A DNA stretch of 33,994 bases, taken from the IMG/VR virus record IMGVR_UViG_2802429242_000009, positions 1-33,994 of that record. One strand, 5' to 3'. Positions within the stretch are counted from its first letter, which is position 1, and each line of letters starts with the position of its first letter. Source of the stretch: a virus (Duplodnaviria > Heunggongvirae > Uroviricota > Caudoviricetes). Made by a program: the position numbers. Positions 3,001-9,000 of this stretch are shown here, in pieces.

Positions 3001-6000
3001 TTACCCATTCGGAATCAATCTTGATTGATATGCCGCATTCAACGCCTCCGTTGTTGGGAATATCGCGGTATTCATTGCGCCATCCTGCTTTGCCGCAAAC
3101 ATCGTCCAGGCGTTTCATGATTGCCCTGTTCGTGACATAAGCCAGCACCATAGCCCACACCTTTCCATCGCGTGTTTTACCGCTTTGCTGTATTCGCCAT
3201 TCGATATCTTCAGGGCTGAATGGCTCATCGAATTTATTCAAATCCATAATTCACCTCAGAATGGACACGGCCCAAGGAAATAACGCTGATTTAATACTTC
3301 GACTCGGGACAAATTAAGGCATACCCGCATTCCTTCGCGGTCGCCATTATGGCGATACCAGAGAGCTTTCTGCGTGTACATGCGTCTCTGTAACTTGCTC
3401 TCCTTCACTGTGGTTGCAAGTGGCATGAATATCTCCTTCGTTACCGATTAATTCTTTCATCTGACGAATGAATTCTTCGTCTGACCAGTTATCTGCAAAA
3501 CTCATTTCCTGCGATACCACGGAAGGTTGATAGCTGATTTCATCGCTTTATTTGCTTCAAGCCACATTTTTGAATCACCAATAAATCTGGCTATTACTGC
3601 TTTGTTTTGTGCAGCACGAAGCATCTGGTGATTGATGGCTATTTCATTGCGCATAATAAGACCTCAACTCTTTTCCATCCGTCACGTAATTTACGGGTGA
3701 TTCGTTCAAGTAAAGATTCATTTAATTGGAAGGCACCCATGCGAGCGCCTCCCGCGATTGCGTAAATCATGGGTGGTTCCTTATGTTGGTTTTATTAGTA
3801 GGTTATTTTTGTTGCGAATACTTCGCCTTTTACGATGGCTGTTATGATATTTTTAGCAACATCTTCTGATGCGCCAACCTTGATAAGGTCAGCAAGTATT
3901 TTGTTATTTACTTCTTTCCGGTGAGCTTTATCCTTTGCTCTACGCTCTTCTTCGTCCTTGATTCTTTTTTCTTCTGCTATTCTGGCTTGCTCTTTTACTT
4001 CAGCCTCGCGCCGGATTCGTTCAGCCTCCTCCTGTGCTTTTCGGCGTTCTGCTTCAATTGCCGCCTGCTTTTCTCTTTCAGCTCGTTCTGCTGCCTCTTT
4101 TGCTTCGCGCTGTGCTCGTTGCTCGGCTTCAATACGTTCACGCTCTGCACGTTCCGCTGCTGCCTTAGCTTCTGCTTCTCGCCTTGCTGCTGCTTCAATT
4201 TCGGCTTTTGCCTTTGCTTCGGCTTCAGCTCTGGCTTTCTCTTCAGCTTCTCTTTTTAAGCGTTCTTCATGCTCTCGCTTTTCCTGCTCCGCTTTGAGTC
4301 TTGCCTCTTCTCTTTGGCGGTCAAATTCGCGATCCATCAAAATCGCTATTTCATGGTCAGACTCAATTTGCTTTGCGAGAGCTTCAGCTGCTGCCTTAGC
4401 TTCTTCTTCGGCTTTAATCCGTGCCTGTTCCTCCTCATAATCAGTAAGAGGCTGGCGCGCCTTGGCTTTCAGTTCATCAAGGCGATCGCGCACTGTCTTG
4501 CGGTTGGCATCAATTAGCTTTGGAATTTCCTTCAGTTCAGCAACAAGGTCTTTGCCAAGACCATCGAGATATGTTTTCGTCTGCGCAACTTTATACGCCA
4601 GAGAAGCGATCTCCTTTCTGCCCTTTGCCGTTGTGATATCAGGCACAAAGGACATAACTTCACGTTCAACCTTTTGAAGGATTTCTTCAATCTGGTCGGC
4701 AGACTGAAATACAGTCATTGCATTTGCTTTTTCAATAACAACTAAATCTGTTACTTCACTCATATATATCCTCCGTCAAAAAAATTGCCCTCACACTGGA
4801 GGGCAAAGAAGATTTCCAATAATCAGAACAAGTCGGCTCCTGTTTAGTTACGAGCGACATTGCTCCGTGTATTCACTCGTTGGAATGAATACACAGTGCA
4901 GTGTTTATTCTGTTGTTTATGCCAAAGATAAAGGCCGACTATGCGGCCTCGGAAGGAAGCCCAATCATCTTATTCAAATCTTCTACCCGTAAAGCAGGAA
5001 GTGCTGTACTTGCTTTATCTGCTTCTTTTGGTAGCAATTCTTTGCTTTCAGGCCAAACTTCAATAAGTCGCTTAACTGTTGTGACTGAGTTTAAAGCAGC
5101 CCATACATTTGATTCGATATCCTTTTTCTTGGCTTCAAGTTTTTGTTGCAATGCGCAGATTTCATCAAACCTTTTTGTTATTTCGTGTTCTGCGTCAAAC
5201 ATGCATTTATCTTTTTCTGGGGTGGGGAGCAATATATCTTCACCGTTGCCGTCTTTTCCGTATGAATGCCAGCCAACCCTTCTTCCAGATACAGTCAGAT
5301 AAATCGAAGTAGAACGAACATCGCATGAGTAAAATGAACATCCCATCTTCTCAAGTTCTTCACTTATAGCTGCTAACTTGGATGATAACTGATCCACTTC
5401 CTCAGTTTTATTTTCCCCGCCAAACGCAATAACTCTGGCGTCAAGTGCAAGTTGGTTCTTTAACTTTGTTACTTCTTCAAGTTCAGTGAAAACTCCAGAC
5501 TTAATTAAAGCGTTACGAGCGATTTCCTCTTTCATTCTCGTAGTTAAGCGGATTGATGACATATTAATTCCTCTCAAATAAGTGGTTTGCTACCTAATTT
5601 CATTTTCTGGCGACCAACACAAGTCACGCCCATTTCACTGCGTGGCTTGCGGTAGTAAATACGGTTCTGTTTACGCTCGACTTCATCTGCCTTCTTGCAG
5701 CGAAGGCTGCCAAGTGATGCTGCTTTGTCTGCTCTGACGCAACCAGAGAGCTTTAGCGCAATTTTTCGCGCCAGTCGCTGCTCTTGCATTGCCTGTTCAC
5801 GTTGAGCCTGTCTGCGTGCTCTGCGGCGATTTCTGGCGTTATCGTCAGCCAGATATGTAATGACTACTGTCATGTTGACCTCCGGGAAGGTACACATCCT
5901 TGTGTGTCGATGATTATTTGTTTTTGCGTTCCCACATCCAGTCATCTACTTCAGACCAGATAGTGAAACCGAAGCAGATGGCGAATGTGGTAACTAAACC

Positions 6001-9000
6001 ACCGAGAATTGGGTTGGTCATGATGTCTAACATTTTCTGTTCCTCAGATGATTAGCTTTGGTGGTGTGGTAGGTGGGAGACCCATTTCGACCCGCTTCGT
6101 CCGACTTCAATTCGGCAATAGTCCCGCAGGCCTCGCCGCTTTACGTGCGACATATTCCCGTCCATGAACCCTTCACCACACCCCAAAGCCAACTACTCTT
6201 TGGTTCCCGCATTTCGGCGGGACAATCCCATCAATGTTAAAGAGCCTGCCAATCTGTTCCGTTTGGCTACCAGCGTCCTGCTGATGGCTTAAATTTAAGA
6301 TCTCTTTAATTAATGGTCAAGAGTATTTTTGAAGAAAACTTAAATTTTCTTTCGTAACTTAAGTTTGGCTTTGATTTTTAAAGGAAATAAAAAAAAAGGG
6401 GCGAATGCCCCCTTATGGAAGGTTTGCTAGTTTTGCATCGACAACTACGCCGATGATTTTGCAGTTTCCGTTGATCTCGATCATCGGATATTGTGGGTTA
6501 AGTGGTTTTAGAAACTTCCTGCCTGCATCAATAACTAACTTCTTGAAAGTTGCCTCGTTTTCTCCTTCGAGCTTTGCAACTACCAGTTTCCCGTTACGCG
6601 GCTCTACTTCAGGATCGACGAGTATTATCATTCCTTCAGGGATACTGAGACCGGCCGGAGCCGTCATTGAGTCTCCCTTCACGTCCAACCAAAACGAATC
6701 TTCTGAACAGTCTACGGTTGTATCGTACCAGTTATCTATTGCACGCTTATGATATGGTTCCACAGCTTCCATCCAGCATCCTGCGCTCACCCAGCTAATC
6801 AGAGGGTATGACCCTCTTGGATCATGCCTACTGTGATAGGCAATGTTTGAAAGACTTTCCTCTCCTTTCATCAGATAGTCAGGGGAACACTTCAACGCAT
6901 TAGCCAGGGCGAGAAGATTCTCTCCATTTGGCTCTGTCTCAGAGCGTTCCCACTGAGATATGGCAACATTAGACACGCCGACCATCTTTCCAAGTGCGGC
7001 CTGCCTGATCTTGAGTTCTTTTCTCCGAGCGCGAATGCGCTCTCCCATCAATTGAGTTTTCATAGTTAAGACATCTTAAATAAACTTGACTTAAGATTCC
7101 TTTAGTGGATAATTTAAGTGTTCTTTAATTTCGGAGCGAGTCTATGTACAAGAAAGATGTTATCGACCACTTCGGAACCCAGCGTGCTGTAGCTAAAGCG
7201 TTAGGCATTAGCGACGCAGCAGTCTCTCAGTGGAAGGAAGTCATCCCAGAGAAAGACGCCTATCGACTGGAAGTCGTTACAGCTGGCGCCCTGAAGTATC
7301 AAGAAAGCGCTTACCGCAAAGCGGCATAAGCAAATTGCTCTTTAACAGTCATGGTCCTCATTCCCGCCGAAATGCGGGAATACAACGCGCATAAGTTGAT
7401 GCGCATAACTTCTTATTTGTTAAGGAAATACTTACATATGGTTCGTGCAAACAAACGCAACGAGGCTCTACGAATCGAGAGTGCGTTGCTTAACAAAATC
7501 GCAATGCTTGGAACTGAGAAGACAGCGGAAGCTGTGGGAGTTGATAAGTCGCAGATCAGCAGGTGGAAGAGGGACTGGATTCCAAAGTTCTCAATGCTGC
7601 TTGCTGTTCTTGAATGGGGCGTCGTTGACGACGACATGGCTCGATTGGCACGACAAGTTGCTTCGATTCTCACCAATAAAAAACGCCCGGCGGCAACCGA
7701 GCGTTCTGAACAAATCCAGATGGAATTCTGAGGTAATTACTGGATCTATCAACAGGAGTCATTATGACAAAACAACTCAGTCCTTACCAGGACAAAATTC
7801 ACAAACACATACTACGTGATCGCTTCCTGTCCAGCTTCAAGCAGCCTGGTCGATTCCGGGCTGAGTTGGAAAAGGTGAAGCTGATGCAGAAGGAGAAAGG
7901 TCATGAGTAACATATCTAATCTAGCCGAAGCCAGAGAGGCCAGAAGGCTACAACAACCGCATCAAAGCAGCGGTAAGGGGTATGCCTTGCTGCACCGTAA
8001 AATTATGGATGTGCCGTTTTACAAGGACGCAGAAGCAGCACATCTGTGGGTTCACTTAATCCTCAAAGCAAAGCATACGCCTGAGTATGTAATGACTGAC
8101 GCAGGAGAAATTCTGGTAGGCAGAGGTAAGCTACTTGGCGGTAGAAACTCTCTGGCGTTTGAAACAGGACTCAAACCAGATCGCGTTCAGTACCTGCTTA
8201 GAAAGTTCAAAAAACTCGGCATGATTGACTGGGTTTCACACGGTAAATTCTCAGTTTTCTCGGTAGAGAAATATGACGATTATCAGTCAAATTTTGTACC
8301 AGCAGATTACCAGCAAATTACCACCTCAAAGCCAGCAATACCAATGCCTGTAAGCAATACTGTACCAGCAGATTACCAGCAAATTACCACAGATAAAGAA
8401 TATAATAATATTATCTCTAATACTGACGTATTAGAGAGTGCCACAGCAGACAAAAAGTCTGACAAGAAAAAACCTTCCGTTAGCTGTCAGGATGTTGTCG
8501 ATGCTTACCACGAAATCCTTCCTGAAGCGCCAAGAATCCGCGCACTGAATGACAAGCGTAAAAACCAGATCCGAACGTTCTGGCGCAAAGCCGGAGTGAT
8601 AACCCGCCAGCTTGACGGGCATGGGTTCTCGATGCAGGACTGGAGAAATTATTTGAGCTACGTAGGCGAAAATTGCCGATGGATGTTCGAAGAACGCCCA
8701 AACCATCAACGCGGAACCGTCTGGCACAAAAAGGGATTTGATTTCCTGCTTAACGACAATACCTACCTGAAAGTTCGTGAGGGTGAACACGATGACCGAT
8801 AATTTTTATGCGCCGCCCCATAGCATCGAGGCAGAGCAGGCGGTGATTGGTGGATTGCTTCTGGATGATGACAGCAGTGAGCGCGTCCAGAAAGTTCTGG
8901 CGATGCTGAAGCCTGATTCATTTTACGGCCGACCACACAAAATCCTTTTCGAAGAAATAACCAGAATGCACCGGGAGCAAAAGCCAGTAGATGGCCTGAC

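Follow-up and report, generated by a model that had tools for sequence, protein, structure and literature searches.

A conserved 39-codon gene for a predicted membrane peptide inside the pL leader of lambdoid Escherichia prophages

Does the leader of the pL transcript in a lambdoid phage hold a gene of its own, and what might such a gene do directly in front of the antiterminator gene N? The question is raised by a short open reading frame (ORF) in IMG/VR virus record IMGVR_UViG_2802429242_000009, whose positions 1 to 33,994 were analysed; this whole stretch of 33,994 nucleotides (nt) is referred to as the window. The region considered here comprises immunity and early functions of a phage or prophage of lambdoid (P22-like/CUS-3-like) type. 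A first-pass annotation had described, 3' of nutL, a 39-codon ORF with a GAGG ribosome-binding site of its own, whose product could be a small membrane protein, of an exclusion or toxin-like kind, or the translation of a chance ORF. Both the ORF and its ribosome-binding site are present as described (Table 1). Their presence alone says little, as ORFs of 39 codons are not above chance on their own and many occur in the ORF listing of the window. Because such ORFs often arise by chance, this one, called the small ORF below, becomes significant only through comparative evidence.

The small-ORF segment is found in 31 of 5,426 complete RefSeq genomes of Escherichia coli, and further copies are carried by 25 IMG/VR contigs, four metagenome contigs and three assemblies reached via a profile search. 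The copies that were read, from E. coli genomes, IMG/VR, metagenomes and other assemblies, number 37 and give 16 DNA haplotypes (individual loci bear L numbers). Most copies are nearly identical, as are all four from metagenomes; one copy identical to that of the window lies at 1507422–1507602 of E. coli SCU-308 (NZ_CP053281). This near-identity and the frequency of ORFs of the same size in the window are consistent with a chance ORF in a non-coding leader, conserved through RNA structure or recent descent only. The divergent copies speak against such an origin. They share 69–82% amino-acid identity and keep the length, start, stop and Shine–Dalgarno (SD) sequence, with synonymous sites near saturation. 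All 37 copies have exactly 39 codons, with ATG and TAA at the same places. For the five most divergent lineages, the Nei–Gojobori ratio of nonsynonymous to synonymous substitution rates (dN/dS) is 0.06–0.29, with the proportion of synonymous differences reaching 0.74–0.87; the pooled, uncorrected ratio of proportions (pN/pS) is 0.28. The synonymous excess has a Fisher p of 7e-7 for the window against L033 and against L034, and of 2e-4 against the L005 type. Variable sites are distributed 17/10/27 over codon positions 1/2/3, and the codon for Arg36, CGC in most copies, is AGA in L033. The two other sense frames contain stops in 16/16 haplotypes. Additionally, the ORF is 74–93% identical between lineages and the 120 nt upstream of it only 59–66%, which is the random or background level, and an SD (GAGG or GGAG) stands 6–9 nt before the ATG in every lineage despite the different upstream sequences.

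RNA structure was considered as the main constraint inside the ORF and rejected. A hairpin can be drawn there, but RNAalifold assigns it a covariation term of −0.6 kcal/mol with pairs in the invariant Trp/Met codons, so that the consensus fold holds no real covariation, and the flanks cannot be aligned. Conservation of the ORF in relatives, which the first-pass annotation had proposed to compare at the amino-acid and nucleotide levels, is thus synonymous-biased, and homologues are recognised at the protein level without nucleotide similarity. The invariant 39 codons, the dN/dS range, the conserved SDs and membership in a protein family (phrog_7482, below) reject the chance ORF, which is regarded as extremely improbable. 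At the level that comparative analysis can establish, the small ORF is a real, conserved gene.

The family to which the peptide belongs is uncharacterised. Against the phrog_7482 profile the peptide scores E = 8.1e-25 (87.5 bits), with residues 1–39 on profile positions 1–39 of 46, and the divergent lambdoid members reach 1e-20 and 8.5e-19. A tblastn search of the phage collection returned weak matches only (35% identity over 37 residues, no nucleotide similarity), and these are annotated genes of 45–46 codons in virulent Mooglevirus (Sf13–Sf19, Michonne, Mordin) and Avunavirus phages, one of them named 'putative membrane protein'. The virulent-phage proteins themselves match the profile, Mooglevirus Sf18 gp86 with 1.6e-29 and the Avunavirus protein with 6.6e-24. 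Shigella phage Sf18 gp86 ('putative membrane protein'), Citrobacter phage Michonne gp114 and Avunavirus 19-1-2 peg.130 resemble the lambdoid peptides in their tiny size, the N-terminal pattern M-[LI]-[DE]-I-[IM]-x-N-P-I-L, one hydrophobic helix and a basic tail. The N-terminal motif shared by lambdoid and virulent members can be written MLDIIxNPIL, and S/G-E-[IV]-[SD]-D follows the hydrophobic stretch in both. They differ in that the lambdoid peptides have 39 residues and a Trp-rich DDWMWERKNK end, whereas the virulent-phage proteins have 45–46 residues and another tail. The settings also differ, the pL leader before N in the one case and small-gene clusters of virulent myoviruses in the other.

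The product is predicted to be a membrane-like peptide with one kinked transmembrane helix and a basic C-terminal tail. AlphaFold places a helix at residues 2–6, a break at Asn7-Pro8 and a second helix at residues 8–38, with a mean pLDDT (predicted local distance difference test) of 84.9. The Kyte–Doolittle mean over 19 residues is 1.6–1.9 for the lambdoid members and 2.6–2.7 for the virulent-phage members. The membrane-like character ascribed to the peptide at first pass is borne out by its hydropathy and by the single long helix of the model. Invariant positions include N7 P8 I9 L10 G11, F17, I19, F23 T24, W26 S27, D31 W32 M33 W34 and R36 K37 N38 K39. The peptide ends in an aromatic/acidic/basic tail, SEVDDWMWERKNK. 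Because Lys and Arg of the lambdoid members are confined to this tail, the positive-inside rule suggests an N-out/C-in topology with the tail in the cytoplasm.

A short peptide with one hydrophobic helix and a charged aromatic C-terminal tail has the typical architecture of a type I toxin. Such a killer peptide would depolarise the membrane; it would be repressed together with pL in the lysogen, to judge from its position, and released on induction. This explanation is distinctly unlikely. At E ≤ 10, Pfam gave only TrbC (0.064) and no Hok, Ldr, Fst, TisB or other type I toxin family, and sequence searches of NCBIfam, PADLOC and the PDB gave no match. A promoter scan of positions 5500–6450 on both strands, a consensus scan and as such weak negative evidence, found no promoter-like site except pL, that is, neither an antisense promoter on the plus strand nor a promoter belonging to the small ORF. 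Moreover, membrane killing at an early stage would be counter-productive before phage replication, and the homologues are ordinary small genes in virulent phage genomes.

The leader that holds the small ORF is a mosaic. From pL to about 30 nt beyond boxB, the window is near-identical to phages Gally and CUS-3; it then diverges completely until the N initiation region, CGGAGGTCAACATG, where the sequences agree again. Of the divergent part, the first 137 nt (6185–6049) are 95.6% identical to the nutL–N spacer of 933W-type Shiga toxin (Stx) phages. The last ~170 nt (6054–5886), which comprise the small ORF with its SD and a short hairpin, have no nucleotide match among 50,697 phage records. The small ORF is accordingly described as a promoterless cassette of ~170 nt (SD, 39 codons, short hairpin; ~5886–6054) between the post-nutL stem and the ribosome-binding site of N. 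The short hairpin travels with the cassette, and several lineages have it as GCACA-AGGA-UGUGC; loci with a P22-type N have GACACACAU-UC-AUGUGUGUC in its place, and L033 has a long stem. The same scan of 5500–6450 found no terminator after the small ORF on the transcribed strand. Read on the plus strand, the hairpin at 5889–5908 is followed by a T-rich run (GGTACACATCCTTGTGTGTC GATGATTATTTGTTTTTG) and was scored terminator-like; it could be a stop for transcription running against pL, or a coincidence.

Phages often have mosaic leaders and small accessory genes with hydrophobic products. The cassette resembles lambdoid morons and other accessory cassettes in its presence or absence between near-identical genomes, its sharp mosaic boundaries and its small membrane product. 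Classical morons, however, carry a promoter and a terminator of their own and are active in the repressed prophage, whereas this cassette has neither signal. It is not a classical moron, because it is part of the pL transcript and, by its position, would be silent in the lysogen; its expression would be expected only on derepression of pL.

The length of the leader had also attracted attention, with about 400 nt estimated between the pL start and the N start codon. With the transcript beginning at 6285 and N at 5873, the 5' untranslated region of N measures 412 nt. The leader is indeed long, but 'unusually long' is a relative description, as relatives span 190–525 nt: 190 nt in phage 21 and mEp235, 222 nt in lambda, 242 nt in 933W, 275 nt in Gally, 392–394 nt in HK140 and CUS-3, and 525 nt in Stx2_EH1904. 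Leader length is not special in itself, because it results from mosaic insertions, which are common in this phage group. An Rfam scan of 5400–7500 at E ≤ 1 found no known RNA family in the leader of the window. Short 'hypothetical proteins' are annotated inside other lambdoid N leaders, namely HK140_048 (L046:622-747) and L010:787-945, where they overlap nutL or the stem; these look like products of gene callers.

The part of the leader between nutL and the small ORF is structured. The leader fold has a z of −3.9, and the segment 6185–6049 forms a long stem; its arms, GGCUUUGGGGUGUGGUG and CACCUACCACACCACCAAAGC, differ little from those of the lambda leader. This closing stem is predicted in 10 different leaders with interiors of 47 to 235 nt, and it is kept in lambda, 933W, Gally, CUS-3, L005, L006, L012, L022 and L034. 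Both arms change with pairing kept, for example as GGGAUUGGAUG/CAUCCAAUCACC in Gally and GGGGUGACGUG/CGCGUCACCGCC in CUS-3. The closing helix, GGNUUUGG.../...CCAAAGC, has one bulged base, and the stem interior is swapped as a module among leaders. We take this post-nutL stem to correspond to the RNase III-sensitive stem of the lambda N leader; that stem and the NutL-dependent repression of N were reportedly treated by Steege in 1987, Kameyama in 1991 and Wilson in 1997 and 2002.

The comparison with lambda shows which position the small ORF has taken. Both leaders have the same order of elements, the same transcript start (AUCAGCAGGA) and a near-identical stem base (GGCUUUGGGGUGUG...CACACCACCAAAGCU), and in both the next initiation region follows 10–17 nt after the stem. 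In lambda this initiation region is that of N, whereas here it is that of the small ORF, and N of the window begins 160 nt further on, behind a second short hairpin; the leader has 412 instead of 222 nt. The small-ORF initiation region, CCACCAAAGCUAAUCAUCUGAGGAACAGAAAAUG, lies 10–17 nt past the 3' arm CCACCAAAGC, in the slot that belongs to N in lambda and 933W, and it resembles the lambda N initiation region, CCACCAAAGCUAACUGACAGGAGAAUCCAGAUG, in sequence as well as in position.

Prophages with a P22-type N have a tRNA-like sequence in place of the interior of the post-nutL stem, for example L005:1401-1481 (E. coli AR_0058, NZ_CP021689 4471566–4471646), and also L029–L031. Salmonella phage P6 (OP265889, 13205–13318) is the only deposited phage that carries the insert. 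It is called 'tRNA-OTHER' by PGAP and tRNA-Pro(tgg) by ARAGORN, and reaches 38.2 bits with the Rfam tRNA model against a gathering score of 29. The anticodon-loop region has 15 nt, the arms of the conserved stem serve as its acceptor stem, and the insert lies directly 5' of the small-ORF SD. Such an insert might bring RNase P-type instead of RNase III processing to the N leader.

The next gene after the small ORF is an N-type antiterminator in 37/37 copies. Five arginine-rich-motif classes are represented among the adjoining N genes: the window/HK620 type (NARNRRRARRQAQ), the P22 gene 24 type with a P22 boxB (GNAKTRRHERRRKLAIERD), a 933W-like type (GRRRERRAALQNE), and those with the motifs TNREHKKLLRAIRHQQ and NSVTRRYLKRGELMAKRRAEAAQ. 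The repressors and the stem interiors 5' of the small ORF also vary among copies. The usual order is nutL, stem, small ORF, short hairpin and N, with 40 nt from the stop codon to the N ATG; L033 differs, in that its small ORF precedes the stem and the native initiation region of N is still the one next to the stem.

A position as constant as this could mean that the small ORF is a cis-acting upstream ORF, the translation or nascent peptide of which controls translation of N, either by coupling or structure remodelling or by taking over the stem-adjacent slot. The same neighbour recurs across five motif classes and several different nut sites and stems, most lineages keep about 40 nt and a hairpin between the stop codon and the N ATG, and the slot next to the stem is the one from which N is initiated in lambda and 933W. 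As summarised in PMC5725501, which cites Wilson et al. (1997, 2002), translation of lambda N is repressed by NutL-bound N with Nus factors, and the intervening leader, which is highly structured, is implicated. Nevertheless, a regulatory role in cis is unlikely. Selection spans the whole peptide, including the transmembrane segment, which goes beyond what an arrest motif or mere translatability would need, and the homologues in virulent phages show no adjacent N gene. The pattern expected of regulatory leader and arrest peptides such as TnaC, SecM, MifM and ErmCL, namely an arrest motif as the only conserved part and a family linked to the gene that it regulates, is not seen here. An arrest that senses membrane insertion is implausible as well, as most of the 39 residues would still be within the exit tunnel at termination.

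N keeps its own strong SD, the same one as in Gally and CUS-3, two phages without the ORF. By thermodynamic modelling only, this SD is predicted to be 75% paired through a local ACCU/AGGU hairpin, and its predicted accessibility is 0.25 with or without the ORF forced single-stranded; such modelling thus shows no effect that would favour translational coupling by unmasking of the N SD. The gap of 40 nt is long for termination–reinitiation coupling. In L033, moreover, the ORF is upstream of the stem and N occupies its native slot.

The small gene probably encodes instead an immediate-early peptide that acts in trans at the host inner membrane; this is the reading favoured here on the basis of sequence comparison. 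Because it has no promoter of its own, the small ORF would be transcribed only from pL. It lies 5' of N and hence upstream of any N-dependent terminator, so that it would be the first cistron translated after infection or induction, and its position would keep it silent in the lysogen. At the inner membrane, the peptide may serve as an immediate-early accessory function, plausibly by blocking or modulating a host membrane protein or by excluding a second phage. A small immediate-early membrane protein acting on entry or host membrane proteins is known in T4 Imm. The likeness to Imm lies in the predicted timing as a first product and in the membrane location; no sequence similarity is known, and the peptide is much smaller. 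Action in trans is favoured because selection keeps the whole peptide and because homologues exist in virulent phages, and cis regulation of N is considered less likely than such a role.

Three observations weigh against this view. The copies in temperate phages are never found elsewhere than directly 5' of N (37/37, usually 40 nt from its ATG), which a pure trans cassette would not obviously need. The homology to virulent-phage proteins is short (35% over 37 residues) and depends on the PHROG profile. Finally, the antisense frame that shares third codon positions with the small ORF is open in 16/16 haplotypes, with a pN/pS of 0.42. Since that frame is open, four arguments carry the assignment to the sense strand: the ratio there is the lower of the two, start, stop and SD are conserved, transcription runs in this direction, and homologues exist at the protein level. 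In the window the antisense ORF has 51 codons (5900–6055, plus strand) and overlaps the small gene; it has no conserved start, runs against the direction of pL and has no promoter, and is most likely a shadow of the sense gene.

The constant neighbourhood of N could also be accounted for by a cassette that rewires the early circuit. Here the small ORF would put its initiation region into the stem-adjacent slot, in which synthesis of lambda N is repressed by the antitermination complex on NutL and freed by RNase III. The peptide would become the autoregulated immediate-early product, and N, 160 nt downstream behind its own hairpin, would escape this control or be retuned. Such a rearrangement is doubtful; if it were true, the exclusive link to five N classes would express a functional partnership of the peptide with N expression, beyond a tolerant insertion site.

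The remaining features make up the surroundings of the small gene (Table 1). The early region is 97–98% identical to phages Gally, CUS-3, IME10 and N7 and ~91% identical to phage 21. On the minus strand the repressor gene is followed by a terminator and then by three operator-like repeats with the pL promoter. The pL transcript starts at the A of ATCAGCAGG at 6285, as obtained by alignment to the annotated pL start in the phage 21 record. The nutL assignment is sound because the same boxA/boxB pair recurs, identical, on the plus strand after cro as nutR (~7338–7380).

At the nucleotide level the N gene of the window is 97% identical to the N genes annotated in CUS-3 and Gally, and its product gives a weak Pfam N_peptide match. 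Its start region, an SD GGAGG followed by MTVVITYLADDNARNRRRARR..., is used as annotated in CUS-3 and Gally. A start at 5945, which would give the longest ORF, was rejected in favour of 5873 on account of that annotation and the GGAGG SD; it is further weakened by the in-frame upstream ATG (+16), which is not in frame in L022 and L044. The gene directly 3' of N (4939–5562, minus strand) encodes a protein of 207 residues in which the Nmad5 domain (PF18757, nucleotide modification associated domain 5; E = 5e-71) is complete. A gene of this kind is unusual immediately after N in the pL operon of a lambdoid phage. The phage region also contains a pair of neighbouring tRNA genes, tRNA-Asn(gtt) and tRNA-Thr(tgt), at 13795–13950 on the plus strand.

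Table 1. Positions of the small ORF and of the surrounding immunity and early features in the window
Feature	Position	Strand	Details
Small ORF	5914..6033	minus	39 codons + TAA; peptide MLDIMTNPILGGLVTTFAICFGFTIWSEVDDWMWERKNK; phrog_7482 membrane peptide gene
Small-ORF SD GAGGA	6041..6045	minus	7 nt before ATG
Short hairpin ACACA-CAAGGA-UGUGU	5892..5907	minus	between small-ORF stop and N SD
Conserved post-nutL stem	6053..6191	minus	arms GGCUUUGGGGUGUGGUG and CACCUACCACACCACCAAAGC; interior variable
pL promoter	6292..6320	minus	−35 TTGACC 6320-6315, 17-nt spacer, −10 TAAATT 6297-6292; promoter scan and phage 21 alignment (pL start, OL operators)
nutL boxA GCTCTTTAACA	6235..6245	minus	same motif 5' of same boxB in pR leader, ~7338-7348 (plus)
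nutL boxB hairpin UCCCGCCGAAAUGCGGGA	6205..6222	minus	predicted in leader fold; identical plus-strand copy ~7361-7380
N antiterminator gene	5574..5883	minus	SD GGAGG 5883-5879; ATG 5873 (ATGACAGTAGTC); 99 amino acids; arginine-rich motif NARNRRRARRQAQ
LexA-like repressor gene	7063..6413	minus	Peptidase_S24 and helix-turn-helix domain matches
cro	7144..7329	plus	
cII-like gene	from 7351	plus	after cro

Scans of GTDB representative genomes with a protein pattern and with a degenerate DNA pattern found no copies, and the small ORF is strain-specific prophage cargo. A profile search of 1.84 billion representative proteins gave eight matches, with no wider family and no annotated relatives. The exact peptide is recorded on ~800 contigs as 'hypothetical protein' or 'putative membrane protein'. 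Together with the uncharacterised family phrog_7482, of which the peptide is a further member, these database entries are what was already known; a literature search on the peptide motifs, the PHROG number and a coding gene inside the N leader found no paper.

Two protein records touch on this distribution. The exact 39-residue peptide (P0012) is filed in a 90%-identity cluster of which the representative and most members are N proteins of 99–101 residues. Its grouping with N proteins, to which it has no sequence similarity, is probably a clustering artefact, perhaps from fused gene calls. The cluster statistics are unreliable, and neither the cluster size nor a Salmonella member was used as evidence. 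A 54-residue protein from a Logan assembly (P0006) has residues 1–22 of the small peptide (window 6033..5968) fused to the C-terminus of the window ORF 3426..3256 (minus strand), and points to a related prophage with a deletion of ~2.6 kb that took out N and the following genes.

In lambda-like phages the pL leader is among the best-studied regulatory RNAs, and the part before N is usually regarded as free of coding sequence. Some Escherichia prophages have a selected gene inside it, a conserved phage gene that annotation missed in 31/31 of its RefSeq E. coli carriers and that is absent from deposited phage genomes. Its product, a predicted membrane peptide with family members in virulent phages, could be the earliest protein that the phage makes when it is induced. 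N of these prophages also lies 160 nt further from nutL and the stem, a natural variant on which the effects of distance and of an intervening cistron on N autoregulation could be studied.

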